DNA from: Escherichia coli
GTDB lineage: Bacteria > Pseudomonadota > Gammaproteobacteria > Enterobacterales > Enterobacteriaceae
Strand: one strand, 5' to 3'
Length of the DNA: 64,000 nucleotides
NCBI RefSeq assembly: GCF_003019035.1
Contig: NZ_CP027447.1
The notes under the pieces were generated by a model. That model made no database searches and was not told the DNA's origin. It saw only the letters and a program-made list of their open reading frames with translations. The position numbers were made by a program, and so were the translations under genes. Position 1 is the stretch's first letter; each line of letters begins with the position of its first letter. Positions 24,187-35,943 of this stretch are shown here, in pieces.

Positions 24187-26721
24187 ATGGCCGGGAATGA
24201 CCGCGAGCCAATTGGACGCAAAGGGAAACCGACGCGTCCGGTCAAACAAAAGGTAAGCCGTCGTCGTTACGAAGATGACGATGATTACGACGATTATGAT
24301 GACTATGAGGATGAAGAACCGATGCCGCGCAAAGGTAAGGGCAAAGGCAAAGGGCGTAAGCCTCGTGGCAAACGCGGCTGGCTATGGCTGCTGCTAAAAC
24401 TGGCTATCGTTTTTGCCGTGCTGATCGCCATTTACGGCGTTTATCTCGATCAAAAAATTCGCAGCCGTATTGATGGCAAGGTCTGGCAATTGCCCGCGGC
24501 AGTTTATGGTCGAATGGTCAACCTTGAGCCAGACATGACCATCAGCAAGAACGAGATGGTGAAGCTGCTGGAGGCGACCCAGTATCGCCAGGTGTCGAAA
24601 ATGACCCGTCCTGGTGAGTTTACCGTACAGGCCAACAGCATTGAGATGATCCGCCGTCCGTTTGATTTCCCGGACAGCAAAGAAGGGCAGGTGCGCGCGC
24701 GTCTGACCTTTGATGGCGATCATCTGGCGACGATCGTCAATATGGAGAACAACCGTCAGTTCGGTTTCTTCCGTCTTGATCCGCGCCTGATCACTATGAT
24801 CTCTTCACCAAACGGTGAGCAGCGTCTGTTTGTGCCGCGCAGTGGTTTCCCGGATTTGCTGGTGGATACTTTGCTGGCGACAGAAGACCGTCATTTCTAC
24901 GAGCATGATGGGATCAGTCTCTACTCAATCGGACGTGCGGTGCTGGCAAACCTGACTGCCGGACGCACGGTGCAGGGGGCGAGTACGCTGACGCAACAGT
25001 TGGTTAAAAACCTGTTCCTCTCCAGCGAGCGTTCTTACTGGCGTAAAGCGAACGAAGCCTACATGGCGCTGATCATGGACGCGCGTTACAGCAAAGACCG
25101 TATTCTTGAGCTGTATATGAACGAGGTGTATCTCGGTCAGAGCGGCGACAACGAAATCCGCGGCTTCCCGCTGGCGAGCTTGTATTACTTTGGTCGCCCG
25201 GTAGAAGAATTGAGCCTCGATCAGCAGGCGCTGTTGGTGGGTATGGTGAAAGGGGCGTCCATCTACAACCCGTGGCGTAACCCGAAACTGGCGCTGGAGC
25301 GACGTAACCTGGTACTGCGTCTGCTGCAACAGCAACAGATTATTGATCAAGAACTCTATGACATGTTGAGTGCACGTCCGCTGGGTGTTCAGCCGCGCGG
25401 TGGGGTGATCTCTCCTCAGCCAGCCTTTATGCAACTGGTGCGTCAGGAGCTGCAGGCGAAATTAGGCGATAAGGTAAAAGATCTCTCCGGCGTGAAGATC
25501 TTCACTACCTTTGACTCGGTGGCCCAGGACGCGGCAGAAAAAGCCGCCGTGGAAGGCATTCCGGCACTGAAAAAACAGCGTAAGTTGAGCGATCTTGAAA
25601 CCGCGATTGTGGTTGTTGACCGCTTTAGCGGTGAAGTTCGTGCGATGGTCGGTGGTTCTGAGCCGCAGTTTGCGGGCTACAACCGTGCGATGCAGGCGCG
25701 TCGTTCGATTGGTTCCCTTGCAAAACCAGCGACTTATCTGACTGCCTTAAGCCAGCCGAAAATCTATCGTTTGAATACGTGGATTGCCGATGCGCCAATC
25801 GCGCTGCGTCAGCCGAATGGCCAGGTCTGGTCACCGCAGAACGATGACCGTCGTTATAGCGAAAGTGGCAGAGTGATGCTGGTGGATGCGTTGACCCGTT
25901 CGATGAACGTGCCGACGGTGAATCTGGGGATGGCGCTGGGGCTGCCTGCGGTTACGGAGACCTGGATTAAACTGGGCGTACCGAAAGATCAGCTGCATCC
26001 GGTTCCGGCGATGCTGCTGGGGGCGTTGAACTTAACGCCAATCGAAGTGGCGCAGGCATTCCAGACTATCGCCAGCGGCGGTAACCGTGCACCGCTTTCT
26101 GCGCTGCGTTCGGTAATTGCGGAAGATGGCAAAGTGCTGTATCAGAGCTTCCCGCAGGCGGAACGCGCGGTTCCGGCGCAGGCGGCGTATCTGACACTAT
26201 GGACCATGCAGCAGGTGGTACAACGTGGTACGGGGCGTCAGCTTGGGGCGAAATACCCGAACCTGCATCTGGCAGGGAAAACAGGAACTACCAACAATAA
26301 CGTAGATACCTGGTTTGCGGGCATTGACGGCAGCACGGTGACCATCACCTGGGTAGGCCGTGATAACAACCAACCGACCAAACTGTATGGAGCCAGCGGG
26401 GCAATGTCGATTTATCAGCGTTATCTGGCTAACCAGACGCCAACACCGCTGAATCTTGTTCCGCCGGAAGATATTGCAGATATGGGCGTGGACTACGACG
26501 GCAACTTTGTTTGCAGCGGTGGTATGCGTGTCTTGCCGGTCTGGACCAGCGATCCGCAATCGCTGTGCCAGCAGAGTGAGATGCAGCAGCAGCCGTCAGG
26601 CAATCCGTTTGATCAGTCTTCTCAGCCGCAGCAACAGCCGCAACAGCAACCTGCTCAGCAAGAGCAGAAAGACAGCGACGGTGTAGCCGGTTGGATCAAG
26701 GATATGTTTGGTAGTAATTAA
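24187..26721 (+). CDS. mrcB: penicillin-binding protein 1B (bifunctional glycosyltransferase/transpeptidase)
   Basis: ORF 24172..26721; start at [14 protein letters not shown] (24187); glycosyltransferase motif EDRHFYEH, transpeptidase SxxK (SLAKP) and KTG; acidic D/Y-rich then KGKGKGKG N-terminal tail. Confidence 0.95.
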
Positions 26722-26883
26722 CGTCTAAGCGTGACATACCGGATGGCGAGTAGCCATCCGGTAAAATAACATCCCACCTAAAGTATTAACCCTTTCTTTT
26801 CATCTGGTTGTTTATTAACCCTTCAGGAACGCTCAGATTGCGTACCGCTTGCGAACCCGCCAGCGTTTCGAATATTATCTTAT

Positions 26884-26905
26884 CTTTATAATAATCATTC
26901 TCGTT
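26884..26905 (+). promoter_or_regulatory. Fur box in fhuA promoter
   Basis: tataataatcattctc (26887..26902) resembles the Fur consensus GATAATGATAATCATTATC, about 40 nt upstream of the fhuA ATG. Confidence 0.55.
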
Positions 26906-26940
26906 TACGTTATCATTCACTTTACATCAGAGATATACCA

Positions 26941-29184
26941 ATGGCGCGTTCCAAAACTGCTCAGCCAAAACACTCACTGCGTAAAATCGCAGTTGTAGTA
27001 GCCACAGCGGTTAGCGGCATGTCTGTTTATGCACAGGCAGCGGTTGAACCGAAAGAAGACACTATCACCGTTACCGCTGCACCTGCGCCGCAAGAAAGCG
27101 CATGGGGGCCAGCTGCAACTATTGCGGCGCGACAGTCCGCTACCGGCACCAAAACAGATACACCGATTCAAAAAGTGCCACAGTCTATTTCTGTTGTGAC
27201 CGCCGAAGAGATGGCGCTGCATCAGCCGAAGTCAGTAAAAGAGGCGCTTAGCTACACGCCGGGTGTCTCTGTTGGTACGCGTGGCGCATCCAACACCTAT
27301 GACCACCTGATCATTCGCGGCTTTGCAGCAGAAGGCCAAAGTCAGAATAACTATCTGAATGGCCTAAAGTTGCAGGGCAACTTCTATAACGATGCGGTCA
27401 TCGACCCGTATATGCTGGAACGTGCTGAAATCATGCGTGGTCCGGTATCCGTGCTGTACGGGAAAAGCAGCCCTGGCGGCCTGTTGAACATGGTCAGCAA
27501 GCGCCCGACTACAGAACCGCTGAAAGAAATTCAGTTTAAAGCCGGTACTGACAGCCTGTTCCAGACTGGTTTTGACTTTAGCGATGCGCTGGATGATGAC
27601 GGCGTTTATTCTTATCGCCTGACCGGTCTTGCGCGTTCTGCCAATGCCCAGCAGAAAGGGTCAGAAGAGCAGCGTTATGCTATTGCACCGGCGTTCACCT
27701 GGCGTCCGGATGATAAAACCAATTTCACCTTCCTTTCTTACTTCCAGAACGAGCCGGAAACTGGTTATTACGGCTGGTTGCCGAAAGAGGGAACCGTTGA
27801 GCCGCTGCCGAACGGTAAGCGTCTGCCGACAGACTTTAACGAAGGGGCGAAGAACAACACCTATTCTCGTAACGAGAAGATGGTCGGCTACAGCTTCGAT
27901 CACGAATTTAACGATACCTTTACTGTGCGTCAGAACCTGCGCTTTGCTGAAAACAAAACCTCGCAAAACAGCGTTTATGGTTACGGCGTCTGCTCCGATC
28001 CGGCGAATGCTTACAGCAAACAGTGTGCGGCATTAGCGCCAGCGGATAAAGGCCATTATCTGGCACGTAAATACGTCGTTGATGATGAGAAGCTGCAAAA
28101 CTTCTCCGTTGATACCCAGTTGCAGAGCAAGTTTGCCACTGGCGATATCGACCACACTCTGCTGACCGGTGTCGACTTTATGCGTATGCGTAATGACATC
28201 AACGCCTGGTTTGGTTACGACGACTCTGTGCCACTGCTCGATCTGTACAATCCGGTGAATACCGATTTCGACTTCAATGCGAAAGACCCGGATAACTCCG
28301 GTCCGTACCGCATTCTGAATAAGCAGAAGCAAACGGGCGTTTATGTTCAGGATCAGGCGCAGTGGGATAAAGTGCTGGTCACCCTGGGCGGTCGTTACGA
28401 CTGGGCAGATCAAGAATCTCTTAACCGCGTAGCGGGAACGACCGATAAACGTGATGACAAACAGTTTACCTGGCGTGGTGGTGTTAACTACCTGTTTGAT
28501 AATGGTGTAACACCATACTTCAGCTATAGCGAATCGTTTGAACCTTCTTCGCAAGTTGGGAAGGATGGTAATATTTTCGCACCGTCTAAAGGTAAGCAGT
28601 ATGAAGTCGGCGTGAAATATGTACCGGAAGATCGTCCAATTGTAGTTACTGGTGCCGTGTATAATCTCACTAAAACCAACAACCTGATGGCGGACCCTGA
28701 GGGTTCCTTCTTCTCGGTTGAAGGTGGCGAGATCCGCGCTCGTGGCGTAGAAATTGAAGCGAAAGCGGCGCTGTCGGCGAGTGTTAACGTAGTCGGTTCT
28801 TATACTTACACCGATGCGGAATACACTACCGATACTACCTACAAAGGAAATACGCCTGCACAGGTGCCAAAACACATGGCTTCGCTGTGGGCTGACTATA
28901 CCTTCTTTGACGGTCCGCTTTCAGGTCTGACGCTGGGCACCGGTGGTCGTTATACTGGCTCCAGCTATGGTGATCCGGCTAACTCCTTTAAAGTGGGAAG
29001 TTATACGGTCGTGGATGCGTTAGTGCGTTATGATCTGGCGCGAGTCGGCATGGCGGGCTCCAACGTGGCGCTGCATGTTAACAACCTGTTCGATCGTGAA
29101 TACGTCGCCAGCTGCTTTAACACTTATGGCTGTTTCTGGGGCGCAGAACGTCAGGTCGTTGCAACCGCAACCTTCCGTTTCTAA
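26941..29184 (+). CDS. fhuA: ferrichrome outer-membrane transporter (TonB-dependent receptor)
   Basis: 747-aa ORF with signal peptide; TonB box DTITVTA; C-terminal aromatic residue (…ATATFRF). Confidence 0.96.
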   Translation: MARSKTAQPKHSLRKIAVVVATAVSGMSVYAQAAVEPKEDTITVTAAPAPQESAWGPAATIAARQSATGTKTDTPIQKVPQSISVVTAEEMALHQPKSVKEALSYTPGVSVGTRGASNTYDHLIIRGFAAEGQSQNNYLNGLKLQGNFYNDAVIDPYMLERAEIMRGPVSVLYGKSSPGGLLNMVSKRPTTEPLKEIQFKAGTDSLFQTGFDFSDALDDDGVYSYRLTGLARSANAQQKGSEEQRYAIAPAFTWRPDDKTNFTFLSYFQNEPETGYYGWLPKEGTVEPLPNGKRLPTDFNEGAKNNTYSRNEKMVGYSFDHEFNDTFTVRQNLRFAENKTSQNSVYGYGVCSDPANAYSKQCAALAPADKGHYLARKYVVDDEKLQNFSVDTQLQSKFATGDIDHTLLTGVDFMRMRNDINAWFGYDDSVPLLDLYNPVNTDFDFNAKDPDNSGPYRILNKQKQTGVYVQDQAQWDKVLVTLGGRYDWADQESLNRVAGTTDKRDDKQFTWRGGVNYLFDNGVTPYFSYSESFEPSSQVGKDGNIFAPSKGKQYEVGVKYVPEDRPIVVTGAVYNLTKTNNLMADPEGSFFSVEGGEIRARGVEIEAKAALSASVNVVGSYTYTDAEYTTDTTYKGNTPAQVPKHMASLWADYTFFDGPLSGLTLGTGGRYTGSSYGDPANSFKVGSYTVVDALVRYDLARVGMAGSNVALHVNNLFDREYVASCFNTYGCFWGAERQVVATATFRF

Positions 29185-29234
29185 TTTCTCTTTTGGGGCA
29201 CGGATTTCCGTGCCCGTTTCACAAGTTGGCTGTT

Positions 29235-30032
29235 ATGCAGGAATACACGAATCATTCCGATACCACTTTTGCACTGCGTAATATCTCCTTTCGTGTGCCC
29301 GGGCGCACGCTTTTGCATCCGCTGTCGTTAACCTTTCCTGCCGGGAAAGTGACCGGTCTGATTGGTCACAACGGTTCTGGTAAATCCACTCTGCTCAAAA
29401 TGCTTGGTCGTCACCAGCCGCCGTCGGAAGGGGAGATTCTTCTTGATGCCCAGCCGCTGGAAAGCTGGAGCAGCAAAGCGTTTGCCCGCAAAGTGGCTTA
29501 TTTGCCGCAGCAGCTTCCTCCGGCAGAAGGGATGACGGTGCGTGAACTGGTGGCGATTGGTCGTTACCCGTGGCATGGCGCACTAGGGCGCTTTGGTGCG
29601 GCAGATCGCGAAAAGGTCGAGGAAGCTATCTCGCTGGTTGGCTTAAAACCGCTGGCGCATCGGCTGGTCGATAGTCTCTCTGGCGGCGAACGTCAGCGGG
29701 CGTGGATCGCCATGCTGGTGGCGCAGGATAGCCGTTGTCTGTTGCTCGACGAACCGACCTCGGCGCTGGATATCGCCCACCAGGTTGATGTGCTGGCGCT
29801 GGTGCATCGTTTAAGTCAGGAGCGTGGCCTGACGGTCATTGCCGTGCTGCACGATATCAATATGGCTGCGCGTTACTGTGATTATCTGGTCGCCCTGCGC
29901 GGCGGTGAAATGATTGCTCAGGGAACGCCTGCGGAAATTATGCGCGGCGAAACCCTTGAAATGATTTATGGCATCCCGATGGGTATTTTGCCGCATCCGG
30001 CGGGTGCTGCACCTGTGAGTTTTGTTTATTGA
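29235..30032 (+). CDS. fhuC: ferric hydroxamate ABC transporter ATP-binding protein
   Basis: ORF 29193..30032; start at MQEYTNHSDTTFALRNISF (29235); Walker A GHNGSGKST, signature LSGGERQRA. Confidence 0.95.
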   Translation: MQEYTNHSDTTFALRNISFRVPGRTLLHPLSLTFPAGKVTGLIGHNGSGKSTLLKMLGRHQPPSEGEILLDAQPLESWSSKAFARKVAYLPQQLPPAEGMTVRELVAIGRYPWHGALGRFGAADREKVEEAISLVGLKPLAHRLVDSLSGGERQRAWIAMLVAQDSRCLLLDEPTSALDIAHQVDVLALVHRLSQERGLTVIAVLHDINMAARYCDYLVALRGGEMIAQGTPAEIMRGETLEMIYGIPMGILPHPAGAAPVSFVY

Positions 30033-30922
30033 TGAGCGGCTTACCTCTTATTTCGCGCCGTCGACTGTTAACGGCGATGGCGCTTTCTCCGTTGTTATGG
30101 CAGATGAATACCGCCCACGCGGCGGCTATTGATCCCAATCGTATTGTGGCGCTGGAGTGGTTGCCGGTGGAATTACTGCTGGCGCTCGGCATCGTGCCTT
30201 ACGGCGTGGCGGATACCATCAACTATCGCCTGTGGGTCAGCGAACCACCATTGCCGGACTCAGTGATCGACGTCGGTTTGCGCACAGAACCTAACCTTGA
30301 ACTGCTGACCGAAATGAAACCATCGTTTATGGTCTGGTCGGCAGGATATGGCCCTTCACCAGAAATGCTGGCACGCATTGCGCCGGGTCGCGGATTTAAC
30401 TTCAGTGACGGCAAACAGCCGCTGGCGATGGCGCGTAAATCACTGACGGAAATGGCAGATTTACTTAACCTGCAAAGCGCAGCAGAAACGCATTTAGCGC
30501 ACTATGAAGACTTTATCCGCAGCATGAAACCCCGCTTTGTGAAGCGTGGTGCACGCCCGTTATTGCTGACGACACTTATCGATCCGCGCCATATGTTGGT
30601 CTTCGGTCCAAACAGCCTGTTCCAGGAAATTCTTGATGAGTACGGCATCCCAAATGCCTGGCAAGGGGAAACCAACTTCTGGGGCAGTACCGCTGTCAGT
30701 ATCGATCGTCTGGCAGCGTATAAAGACGTTGATGTGCTCTGTTTTGATCACGACAACAGCAAAGACATGGACACCCTAATGGCGACGCCGCTGTGGCAGG
30801 CTATGCCGTTTGTCCGCGCCGGACGCTTTCAGCGCGTACCTGCAGTCTGGTTTTATGGTGCGACGCTCTCGGCAATGCACTTTGTGCGTATTCTGGATAA
30901 CGCCATTGGAGGTAAAGCGTGA
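30032..30922 (+). CDS. fhuD: ferric hydroxamate periplasmic binding protein
   Basis: ORF 30029..30922; ATG at 30032 overlaps fhuC stop by 1 nt (TGATG); Tat-like signal MSGLPLISRRRLLTAMALSPLL. Confidence 0.94.
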   Translation: MSGLPLISRRRLLTAMALSPLLWQMNTAHAAAIDPNRIVALEWLPVELLLALGIVPYGVADTINYRLWVSEPPLPDSVIDVGLRTEPNLELLTEMKPSFMVWSAGYGPSPEMLARIAPGRGFNFSDGKQPLAMARKSLTEMADLLNLQSAAETHLAHYEDFIRSMKPRFVKRGARPLLLTTLIDPRHMLVFGPNSLFQEILDEYGIPNAWQGETNFWGSTAVSIDRLAAYKDVDVLCFDHDNSKDMDTLMATPLWQAMPFVRAGRFQRVPAVWFYGATLSAMHFVRILDNAIGGKA

Positions 30923-32901
30923 GTAAACGAATTGCGCTTTTTCCGGCGTTATTGCTGGCGCTGTTAGTGATTGTCGCTACGGCGCTCACGTGGATGAACT
31001 TCTCGCAGGCGCTGCCGCGCAGCCAGTGGGCGCAGGCCGCCTGGTCGCCGGATATTGACGTCATCGAGCAGATGATTTTTCACTACAGCTTGTTGCCGCG
31101 TCTGGCGATTTCGCTGCTGGTGGGCGCGGGCCTGGGGCAGGTGGGCGTGCTGTTTCAGCAAGTGCTGCGTAACCCGCTGGCGGAACCGACGACGTTGGGC
31201 GTTGCAACAGGCGCGCAACTGGGGATTACCGTCACCACGCTCTGGGCGATCCCAGGTGCTATGGCGAGCCAGTTTGCTGCGCTGGCAGGGGCTTGTGTTG
31301 TTGGCTTAATCGTCTTTGGCGTCGCGTGGGGGAAACGGCTTTCGCCGGTAACGCTGATCCTCGCGGGGCTGGTAGTGAGCCTTTATTGCGGCGCAATCAA
31401 TCAGTTACTGGTTATCTTCCATCATGACCAGTTGCAAAGCATGTTCCTGTGGAGCACCGGAACGCTGACGCAAACCGACTGGGGCGGCGTTGAGCGTTTA
31501 TGGCCGCAGCTGCTGGGCGGCGTGATGCTGACGTTATTGCTACTTCGCCCGTTAACCCTGATGGGGCTTGATGATGGCGTGGCGCGCAATCTCGGGCTGG
31601 CCTTGTCGCTCGCGCGTCTGGCGGCGTTGTCGCTGGCGATTGTCATCAGTGCGCTGCTGGTGAACGCGGTGGGGATTATCGGCTTTATCGGGTTGTTCGC
31701 GCCACTGCTGGCGAAAATGCTGGGGGCGCGGCGTTTGTTGCCACGGTTGATGCTGGCATCGCTGATTGGTGCGTTAATTCTGTGGCTTTCTGATCAAATC
31801 ATCCTCTGGCTGACTCGCGTGTGGATGGAAGTGTCTACCGGTTCGGTCACTGCGTTGATCGGTGCGCCGCTGCTACTGTGGCTGCTGCCGCGTTTACGCA
31901 GCATTAGCGCGCCGGATATGAAGGTCAACGATCGTGTCGCGACTGAACGCCAACACGTGCTGGCGTTTGCTCTCGCGGGCGGCGTGCTGCTGTTGATGGC
32001 TGTGGTGGTGGCGCTGTCGTTTGGTCGTGATGCGCACGGCTGGACGTGGGCGAGCGGGGCGTTGCTCGAGGATTTGATGCCCTGGCGCTGGCCGCGAATT
32101 ATGGCGGCGCTGTTTGCGGGCGTCATGCTGGCGGTGGCGGGCTGTATTATTCAGCGGCTGACCGGAAACCCGATGGCAAGCCCGGAAGTGCTGGGGATTA
32201 GCTCCGGCGCGGCGTTTGGCGTGGTGTTAATGCTGTTTCTGGTGCCGGGTAATGCCTTTGGCTGGCTGTTACCCGCAGGCAGTCTCGGGGCGGCGGTGAC
32301 GCTGTTGATCATTATGATCGCCGCCGGACGCGGTGGATTTTCCCCACACCGCATGTTACTGGCGGGGATGGCGTTAAGTACCGCGTTCACCATGCTTTTG
32401 ATGATGTTGCAGGCAAGTGGTGACCCGCGAATGGCGCAAGTTCTGACCTGGATTTCCGGTTCGACCTACAACGCGACCGAGGCGCAGGTCTGGCGTACTG
32501 GAATTGTGATGGTGATTTTGCTGGCGATTACCCCGCTGTGCCGCCGCTGGCTGACCATTTTACCGCTGGGAGGTGATACCGCACGAGCCGTGGGGATGGC
32601 GCTGACGCCGACGCGAATTGCGCTGCTGCTGTTAGCGGCTTGCCTGACAGCGACTGCGACAATGACCATTGGACCGTTGAGTTTTGTTGGTTTAATGGCA
32701 CCGCATATTGCGCGGATGATGGGCTTTCGACGGACGATGCCACACATCGTAATTTCGGCGCTGGTGGGTGGTTTACTGCTGGTGTTCGCTGACTGGTGTG
32801 GGCGGATGGTATTGTTTCCATTCCAGATCCCGGCGGGGCTGCTGTCGACCTTTATCGGCGCGCCATATTTTATCTATTTGTTGAGAAAGCAGAGCCGTTA
32901 A
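30919..32901 (+). CDS. fhuB: ferric hydroxamate ABC transporter permease (internally duplicated)
   Basis: 660-aa hydrophobic ORF; GTG start overlaps fhuD stop (GTGA). Confidence 0.95.
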   Translation: MSKRIALFPALLLALLVIVATALTWMNFSQALPRSQWAQAAWSPDIDVIEQMIFHYSLLPRLAISLLVGAGLGQVGVLFQQVLRNPLAEPTTLGVATGAQLGITVTTLWAIPGAMASQFAALAGACVVGLIVFGVAWGKRLSPVTLILAGLVVSLYCGAINQLLVIFHHDQLQSMFLWSTGTLTQTDWGGVERLWPQLLGGVMLTLLLLRPLTLMGLDDGVARNLGLALSLARLAALSLAIVISALLVNAVGIIGFIGLFAPLLAKMLGARRLLPRLMLASLIGALILWLSDQIILWLTRVWMEVSTGSVTALIGAPLLLWLLPRLRSISAPDMKVNDRVATERQHVLAFALAGGVLLLMAVVVALSFGRDAHGWTWASGALLEDLMPWRWPRIMAALFAGVMLAVAGCIIQRLTGNPMASPEVLGISSGAAFGVVLMLFLVPGNAFGWLLPAGSLGAAVTLLIIMIAAGRGGFSPHRMLLAGMALSTAFTMLLMMLQASGDPRMAQVLTWISGSTYNATEAQVWRTGIVMVILLAITPLCRRWLTILPLGGDTARAVGMALTPTRIALLLLAACLTATATMTIGPLSFVGLMAPHIARMMGFRRTMPHIVISALVGGLLLVFADWCGRMVLFPFQIPAGLLSTFIGAPYFIYLLRKQSR

Positions 32902-32907
32902 TAGAAT

Positions 32908-32928
32908 GCCTCGCCCGGTGGGCGAGGC
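32908..32928 (-). terminator. hairpin between convergent fhuB and hemL (likely hemL terminator)
   Basis: gcctcgcc-cggtg-ggcgaggc; on the minus-strand RNA followed by auucuauu. Confidence 0.4.
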
Positions 32929-32935
32929 AAAATCA

Positions 32936-34216
32936 TCACAACTTCGCAAACACCCGACGTGCAGCATCGATGGTGTTATTGATATCTTCCATGCTGTGCG
33001 CTACAGACATAAAGCCCGCTTCAAACGCTGATGGTGCCAGGTAAACACCTTCGTCCAGCATCATATGGAAGAAACGCTTAAAGCGTTCCACGTCACAGGC
33101 CATCACATCCTGATAGCACGTCACGGACTCGGCGTCGGTAAAGAAAATACCGAACATGCCGCCAACGTGGTTAACGACCAATGGAATTCCCGCTTCTTCT
33201 GCCGCTTCCAGCAGACCTTCTGCCAGACGTGTTGTCAGCTCATCCAGCGTTTCGTGAACGCCCGGCTGTGCGACTTCATTCAGACAGGCGAAACCGGCCG
33301 CCATCGCAATCGGGTTACCGGAAAGCGTACCCGCCTGATAGACCGGACCAGTCGGGGCCAGCGCATCCATTACATCACGACGACCACCGAATGCGCCTAC
33401 CGGCATTCCACCGCCGATGATTTTGCCGAGGCAGGTGAGGTCTGGCACCACGTCGTAATAATCCTGCGCACCAGCTAGCGCCACGCGGAAACCGGTCATC
33501 ACTTCATCGATGATCAGCAATGCGCCAAATTCGTCGCACAGTGCGCGCAGACCCGGTAGGAACTCTGGCAGCGGCGGAACACAGTTCATGTTGCCTGCTA
33601 CTGGCTCGACAATAATACAGGCAATCTCTTGCGGGTATTGCTCAAACGCGGCGCGTACAGAGGCCAGATCGTTATAAGTACAGGTTAATGTATGTTTGGC
33701 GAAATCTGCCGGAACGCCCGGCGAGTTTGGCTGGCCTAAAGTGAGTGCGCCAGAACCGGCTTTCACCAGCAGGCAGTCAGCGTGACCGTGGTAACAACCT
33801 TCAAATTTAATAATTTTGTCGCGACCGGTAAAACCACGGGCCAGGCGGATGGCGCTCATCGTCGCTTCAGTGCCGGAGTTCACCATGCGCACCATATCCA
33901 TGGTCGGGACCAGTTCGGTCACCAGTTGCGCCATTTTCACTTCCATTTCGGTTGGTGCACCAAAGCTTAAACCACGCTCGGCGGCTTCAATCACGGCATT
34001 GCGGATCGCCGGATGGTTATGGCCCAGCACCATCGGCCCCCAGGAACCGACATAATCGATATAGGCTTTGCCATCAACATCGTACAGATAAGCGCCGTCC
34101 GCTTTTTCGATAAACAGTGGAGTGCCGCCCACGCCAGTAAAGGCGCGAACAGGGGAGTTCACACCGCCAGGGATCAGCTCGCGCGCTGCGCTGTAAAGAT
34201 TTTCAGACTTACTCAT
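32936..34216 (-). CDS. hemL: glutamate-1-semialdehyde 2,1-aminomutase
   Basis: 426-aa [53 protein letters not shown]... Confidence 0.96.
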
Positions 34217-34422
34217 GGAGGGTTCCTGATTCGTAGAAAAAGTGAATGGCTGCTATTCTATGTTATTCATAACAAGTTAAATACTCGTCAAACATCAGGC
34301 TGCTTGTACTGGTGCAATCCTGATTTCTTAGAGTATAAAAGTTTTGTGCATTTGAAACATTACGCTTTGCAAAGGATTTTCATGGAACGTGCGAGTAAAA
34401 TGCCGTCATCTTATTTGTATGA

Positions 34423-35862
<1,440 letters not shown>

Positions 35863-35943
35863 ACGAAATACCAGGGTATTAGATAATGGCGATTATTATT
35901 GGGTTAGAATTTGCCCAATTGCCGATGTCGTTTGGAGCAAAAT

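Follow-up and report, generated by a model that had tools for sequence, protein, structure and literature searches.

We analysed the fhuACDB locus in a stretch of 64,000 nucleotides of the Escherichia coli chromosome (contig NZ_CP027447.1 of assembly GCF_003019035.1), which we call the window. The locus is the canonical operon for the uptake of ferric hydroxamates, and its essentials were already known. Binding of Fur at its promoter in vitro and in vivo, and derepression of the operon upon deletion of fur, have been shown in K-12, where the promoter DNA is identical. We hold with high confidence a joint reading in which a canonical fhuACDB operon is repressed by Fur at a promoter covered by an array of sites, its messenger RNA (mRNA) steps down at a hairpin between fhuA and fhuC, and the expression of its transporter genes is coupled.

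Gene coordinates come from the RefSeq annotation of identical DNA and from the list of open reading frames: the chromosome of E. coli SCU-301 and the window are 100% identical in the 6.3 kb around the operon that were compared. The four genes lie on the plus strand, in the order A-C-D-B, as do the promoter hexamers, conserved blocks, HypT-like sites, fhuA-fhuC stem-loop, ribosome-binding signals and overlapping codons described below. The first gene, fhuA (26941-29184, ATG at 26941), encodes the TonB-dependent ferrichrome receptor (747 residues) and carries the K-12-type allele, class 1 of the two discussed in the last section. It is followed by fhuC (29235-30032), encoding an ABC ATPase of 265 residues, fhuD (30032-30922), encoding the periplasmic hydroxamate-binding protein of 296 residues, and fhuB (30919-32901), encoding a fused double permease of 660 residues. 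The sequence-only reading of this DNA had recognized the operon but gave it the span 26870-30925. The identification stands, whereas the end does not: the operon closes with fhuB, whose 3' end is at 32901.

Protein families confirm these assignments. FhuA, FhuC and FhuD exceed the cut-offs of their NCBIfam equivalogs (NF007465, 1473 bits versus 803; NF007863, 578 versus 433; NF007864, 552 versus 252, respectively), and FhuB exceeds that of NF007865 (1419 versus 1107) with two FecCD stretches, one for each half, as expected of a fused permease. The plug and barrel domains of FhuA are both present (PF07715 and PF00593). Given its 99.5% protein identity to the K-12 receptor, FhuA would transport ferrichrome and other hydroxamates and would serve phages T1, T5 and phi80, as well as colicin M, as their receptor.

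The homologous operon of K-12 MG1655 (b0150-b0153) has the same gene order, the same gene lengths, both gene overlaps, the same flanking genes and the same 50-nt spacer between fhuA and fhuC, hairpin included. The arrangement had been described as a textbook one, and in gene order, Fur box and overlaps it is indeed that of K-12. The synteny mrcB-fhuACDB-hemL (RefSeq places mrcB at 24187-26721 and hemL at 32936-34216 on the minus strand) is shared by the window, K-12 and most of the 78 loci compared. All but two of 5426 complete E. coli genomes have the 6.3-kb region; of these 5424, only two match it at 99% identity or more. This had raised the suspicion of an unusual copy, which we rejected because the differences from K-12 are mainly synonymous: the four genes differ by 167 nucleotides and 12 amino acids, four of the latter in FhuA.

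Fur control of the fhuA promoter

The 157 bp that precede the fhuA ATG (26784-26940), with the promoter fhuAp and the Fur site, are identical in K-12 and in the window, so that experiments made in K-12 transfer directly. Chen et al. (2007) reported at fhuA a Fur cluster of three sites covering 31 bp (19.5 bits) at K-12 position 167439, which is position 26896 of the window, and an oligonucleotide with this site was shifted by Fur in a gel (PMC2189734). The position precedes the ATG by 45 nt and falls within the 16-mer tataataatcattctc that had been flagged as Fur-box-like. In vivo data come from chromatin immunoprecipitation with exonuclease treatment (ChIP-exo) by Gao et al. (2023, PMC10164565, supplementary data). 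The Fur peaks lie at 167456-167466 in MG1655 and at 167456-167468 in W3110, equivalent to 26913-26925 in the window, at 11-21 bp from the Fur site. Two additional, weaker MG1655 peaks map to 26675-26711 (3' end of mrcB) and 27098-27129 (early fhuA), roughly 200 bp on each side of the promoter peak; neither is listed for W3110. According to the same source, all these peaks had been seen by Seo et al. as well. The known binding data thus put Fur where the sequence-only reading had placed it rather than elsewhere: the gel-shift site and the promoter peaks both map to the fhuA promoter, and the ChIP-exo summit falls within the array of sites described below.

In the data of Gao et al. (PMC10164565), deletion of fur changes the mRNA of fhuA, fhuC, fhuD and fhuB by log2 values of 1.09, 0.95, 1.07 and 0.94 in MG1655, and of 5.00, 3.09, 3.14 and 3.28 in W3110. 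A published fusion of the fhuA promoter to lacZ is also repressed by Fur.

The flagged 16-mer occurs once, at 26887-26902 (39-54 nt upstream of the ATG), inside a classical Fur box, CTTTATAATAATCATTCTC, at 26884-26902. This box has its centre at 26893, and 14 of its 19 positions agree with the 19-bp consensus. The centre differs by 3 bp from the site of Chen et al. because their 19-bp model is offset by 3 bp, in one direction or the other, from the classical centre. The score of 14 ties for the best among the approximately 64,000 positions of the window, six of which reach it, and judged by its sequence alone the box is only moderately special. Its context is more distinctive. Fur-like 19-mers starting at 26878, 26884, 26890, 26896, 26902 and 26908, in an exact 6-bp phase, score 12, 14, 13, 11, 10 and 10. 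They add up to 70, more than any of 200 Markov simulations reached (69 at most), and none of the 200 produced six phased scores of at least 10. Fur clusters with 6-bp spacing are described by Chen et al. (PMC2189734), and this array of about 49 bp (26878-26926) is probably the full extent of multi-dimer Fur binding. A stretch near the N-terminal end of mrcB (24271-24319), made of GAT, GAC and TAT repeats that encode an acidic segment rich in Asp, Glu and Tyr, mimics a phased array in a simple consensus scan and is the only other one with a similar array score. We rejected it as an operator, as it is a low-complexity coding stretch and a compositional false positive.

The operator is conserved well beyond E. 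coli. We compared the upstream regions of 76 orthologous loci in other Enterobacterales. Essentially all orthologous loci have the core ATAATAATNATTNTC at 41-51 nt upstream of the ATG, mostly around -48, and no part of the intergenic region is better conserved than the block from -53 to -22 (26888-26919). The core motif of the Fur box is ATAATAATCATT. Salmonella enterica shares with the window the core ATAATAAT-N-ATT-N-TC and its distance to the ATG, and its Fur box, GGTTATAATAATAATTCTC, differs from that of the window. Within the species, the region 26840-26945 is at least 99% identical in 4232 of 5421 E. coli genomes.

The Fur box had also been said to overlap the promoter. A perfect -10 hexamer, TATAAT (26887-26892), indeed lies inside it. 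The numbering of a study of HypT in Salmonella, which places a HypT site from +7 to +21 (26905-26919), puts the transcription start at 26899, so that the box spans -15 to +4. The claim holds for the hexamer and for this literature start, with the reservation that the latter was derived computationally. Upstream, a -35-like hexamer retrieved by the promoter scan (TTGCGA, 26849-26854) is at least 95% conserved across the 76 regions, and the conserved block TTTCGAATATTATC (26866-26879) holds a perfect Fur hexamer, ATTATC (26874-26879).

The most serious competing explanation concerns HypT, the regulator of the hypochlorite response. The stretch TTACGTTATCATTCA (26905-26919) is the most conserved of the intergenic region and is identical to a site footprinted by HypT in Salmonella. 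The second footprinted site of the Salmonella fhuA promoter (-111 to -97) has a counterpart, AACCCTTTCTTTTCA, at 26788-26802 with one mismatch. The invariant block 26903-26919 might then be kept mainly as a HypT operator and not for Fur, which would be compatible with Fur binding at 26884-26902. It is the best-conserved 19-mer of the region, yet its Fur score is just 10-11 of 19. The published evidence of HypT binding to the fhuA promoter comes from Salmonella alone, for both the protein and the DNA. On the other side, the Fur ChIP-exo summit sits on this very block and overlaps TTACGTTATCATTCA, the Fur-like registers of the block keep the 6-bp phase of the main box, and an E. coli strain with a fimbrial insertion upstream of fhuA has lost the distal HypT site and kept the block. 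We regard this explanation as possible and the less probable one.

Several observations weigh against the Fur reading of the promoter. The consensus match of the box is modest, with comparable matches elsewhere in the window, and a search for the 7-1-7 pattern with up to three mismatches returned 10 matches in the window for 2.45 expected. The start at 26899 traces back to a computational compilation of promoters, and our literature search found no experimental start site for fhuA. TTGCGA and TATTAT (26873-26878), separated by 18 nt, form a second conserved promoter-like pair, which would start transcription near 26885; both candidate starts fall within the phased array. The literature search also found no DNase footprint of Fur on fhuA. 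Finally, the ChIP-exo summit lies past the centre of the classical box, some 20-25 bp further downstream, yet inside the array and the conserved block, while at the map promoter summit and motif coincide in the same dataset. This suggests that the offset at fhuA may be genuine and that the strongest contact in vivo may be with the downstream registers of the array. That the AT-rich element is a plain -10 region, with Fur acting indirectly or from another site, would fit the perfect TATAAT, the modest consensus match, the offset summit and the additional MG1655 peaks, but it is very improbable given that purified Fur shifts the oligonucleotide with the site centred at 26896, that the summit falls within the array, that conservation reaches far past the -10 hexamer and that the operon is derepressed in the fur deletion.

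Direct repression by Fur at the phased array would work as follows. A sigma-70 promoter with its -10 hexamer inside the Fur box would start transcription of fhuACDB, at a start site that is so far predicted. When iron is sufficient, dimers of Fe2+-Fur would fill the overlapping phased sites from about 26878 to 26926, covering the -10 hexamer, the start and the beginning of the transcribed region, and their occupancy would exclude the RNA polymerase, presumably by promoter occlusion. When iron is scarce, Fur would leave and the operon would be transcribed.

Gene overlaps and probable translational coupling

The three transporter genes overlap as the sequence-only reading had indicated. The fhuC/fhuD junction is TGATG (30030-30034), where the fhuC stop (TGA, 30030-30032) shares one nucleotide with the fhuD start (ATG, 30032-30034). 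The fhuD/fhuB junction is GTGA (30919-30922), where the fhuB start (GTG, 30919-30921) and the fhuD stop (TGA, 30920-30922) overlap by 4 nt. We compared these junctions in 75 other species, all from Enterobacterales, with FhuD identities down to 49%. The fhuC/fhuD junction has the form T[GA]ATG in 73 species (TGATG in 54, TAATG in 19), and the two exceptions have a 4-nt overlap and a 1-nt spacer. At the fhuD/fhuB junction all 75 have [AG]TGA (ATGA in 43, GTGA in 32). That the geometry persists although stop and start codons vary speaks for selection acting on it.

The two junctions differ in their initiation signals. No Shine-Dalgarno (SD) sequence precedes fhuD: its best duplex with the anti-SD is at -2.2 kcal/mol, the median of the background. 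In contrast, fhuB, whose start is GTG in E. coli, has a GGAGG within the 3' end of fhuD (30908-30912), 6 nt before the start codon, with a duplex of -10.6 kcal/mol that goes beyond the strongest 5% of background windows. An SD-like sequence for fhuB is found in 70 of the 75 species. Both overlap classes in fhu belong to those associated with termination-reinitiation, the classical trpBA type with ATGA or TGATG junctions, in the work of Huber et al. (2019), who observed coupling in four of five native 4-nt overlaps of E. coli, with a variable contribution of the SD.

From geometry, conservation and this precedent, translational coupling of fhuC, fhuD and fhuB is likely. Since fhuD lacks a ribosome-binding site of its own, obligatory coupling is to be expected at its start, and the sequence suggests that it is close to being so; at the fhuB start coupling may be partial. 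Ribosomes that end fhuC at UGA would reinitiate on the overlapping AUG of fhuD, and those that end fhuD at UGA would be positioned on the GUG of fhuB, aided by the strong GGAGG. Coupling would in this way link the production of ATPase, binding protein and permease.

Two facts speak against coupling: the strong SD would allow fhuB to initiate independently, and one of the five overlaps studied by Huber et al. (2019), bioBF, was not coupled. The literature search found no direct test of coupling on fhuCD or fhuDB. The overlaps could accordingly be inherited gene packing, with fhuD and fhuB initiated de novo by free 30S subunits. The GGAGG of fhuB, with its ideal spacing, suits such an explanation, overlaps of 1 and 4 nt are the commonest classes genome-wide, bioBF is initiated independently, and shared ancestry explains part of the conservation when all the species are Enterobacterales. 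This is nevertheless unlikely in our view: fhuD has a duplex at background level, the geometry is retained at both junctions despite changes in stops, starts and neighbouring residues, and most of the native overlaps in that study were coupled.

The hairpin between fhuA and fhuC

The 50-nt spacer between fhuA and fhuC contains a terminator-like stem-loop, GGGCACGG-ATTT-CCGTGCCC (29196-29215), followed only by GTTTCAC. Its stem has 8 bp, of which 7 are G-C pairs. Practically all orthologous loci (L003-L080) have this nearly invariant stem-loop, and the stem is fully paired in 42 distinct sequences, two of its pairs showing compensatory changes. A single-nucleotide polymorphism just 3' of the hairpin separates the window (G) from K-12 (A). 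Nearer to fhuC, a conserved AAGTTGGC (29223-29230) lies just 5' of the ATG; with an anti-SD duplex of -3.3 kcal/mol, near background, it may be a degenerate ribosome-binding site. An Rfam scan of 26000-34500 with E-values up to 1 returned no known RNA family, and no riboswitch or annotated small RNA in the leader or the spacers.

We rejected a canonical intrinsic terminator at this place. The usual signature, at least five U among the eight nucleotides 3' of the stem, is absent from GTTTCACA in the window, and the terminator scan does not report the hairpin. The U-tract varies between genera: Enterobacter and Leclercia have a longer one, and Buttiauxella has none. A search for Term-seq literature on this hairpin found nothing usable.

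Transcript levels nevertheless fall across the spacer. In published RNA-seq data, fhuA mRNA is 5 to 6.5 times that of fhuC and fhuD, and about 11-14 times that of fhuB (PMC10164565). The conserved stem-loop with its poor U-tract, together with the weak initiation signals of fhuC, probably accounts for the lower fhuCDB mRNA, a view that draws on RNA-seq and conservation. The most economical reading is that the hairpin would act as a leaky terminator or as a stabilizer of the 3' end and set the ratio of receptor to transporter. Receptor-plus-ABC iron operons such as fecABCDE also have a stem-loop after their first gene, that of the receptor, and lower expression of the downstream ABC genes, which serves here as a lead only; fec is additionally under the control of FecI/FecR.

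A fragment of about 700 nt from the 3' part of fhuA accumulates in a pcnB mutant, which lacks the poly(A) polymerase. One could imagine that the GGGCACGG...CCGUGCCC stem-loop and AAGUUGGC form a dedicated and uncharacterized control device, either a leaky terminator or a processing or stability element. Such a device could hold the mRNA of the receptor at about 5-6 times that of the transporter, and it might release a stable 3' fragment of fhuA with a function of its own. We give this specific proposal a low probability.

Derepression is also unequal along the operon. The W3110 data show fhuA rising about 32-fold upon deletion of fur, and fhuC, fhuD and fhuB only 8- to 10-fold; the ratio of fhuA to fhuC mRNA goes from about 1.8 under repression to about 6.6 under derepression (PMC10164565). 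This hints that some Fur-independent transcription enters fhuCDB. The promoter scan found a promoter-like pair, CTGACG and TATACT separated by 18 nt, inside fhuA (28927-28956).

FhuA alleles, flanking regions and other Fur-like sites

FhuA falls into two allele classes, as seen by comparing loci L034, L073, L036 and L040 with the window, L005, L012 and L025. Proteins are about 72-74% identical between classes and 85-93% identical within them. The other class (729 residues) occurs in about 560-630 of the 5426 complete E. coli genomes. Both classes are spread over Escherichia, Salmonella, Citrobacter and Lelliottia, and FhuB tracks the species tree. Within fhuA the divergence is confined to approximately 27130-29100; the promoter, the end encoding the signal peptide and TonB box and the last 90 nt or so are 97-100% identical. 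The pattern points to allelic replacement or to an old balanced polymorphism; phages and colicins are plausible drivers.

In one E. coli locus (L034) a chaperone-usher fimbrial operon of about 5 kb lies directly upstream of the gene (177-5054 of that locus) and encodes a fimbrial subunit, a PapD-like chaperone, an usher and a MrkD-like adhesin; mrcB was not found there within 5.2 kb upstream of fhuA. Homology to the window resumes about 135 bp before the ATG, which preserves the proximal promoter and the Fur array, the distal HypT-like site being lost. The gap between mrcB and fhuA also reaches about 5.4 kb in several genomes of Citrobacter, Enterobacter and Lelliottia (L011, L012, L013, L032, L044 and L079). 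At the other end of the operon, the convergent spacer between fhuB and hemL has 34 bp in the window (32902-32935) and a single GC-rich hairpin, GCCTCGCCC-GGT-GGGCGAGGC (32907-32929), which reads as a terminator on the hemL strand; in K-12 the spacer has 157 bp with REP-like repeats.

Other Fur-like sequences of the window differ in their support. The near-palindromic TGAGAATCATTCTGA (48882-48896), between map and rpsB, is unchanged in K-12 (189583-189597) and coincides with a published ChIP-exo peak at 189588-189600, which makes it a second site of the window bound by Fur in vivo. Two other matches of 14 of 19 positions lie at 35882-35900, just upstream of erpA and inside yadW, and at 34648-34666, in the 5' part of clcA. 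The available part of the ChIP-exo peak list has no peak matching either. The first is unsupported as a Fur site, as erpA separates it from the only nearby peak in that part of the list (K-12 177012).

The discovery value of the locus itself is small, as it is among the best-known iron-uptake loci regulated by Fur, and the copy in the window agrees with K-12 in every regulatory detail. It is best seen as a positive control, for the sequence-only reading had recognized the operon, the Fur box and both overlaps with base precision. The comparative data bring modest support to two textbook inferences: the operator and the geometry of the overlaps are under purifying selection across more than 70 species of Enterobacterales, and fhuD, without a ribosome-binding site of its own, should depend on coupling.

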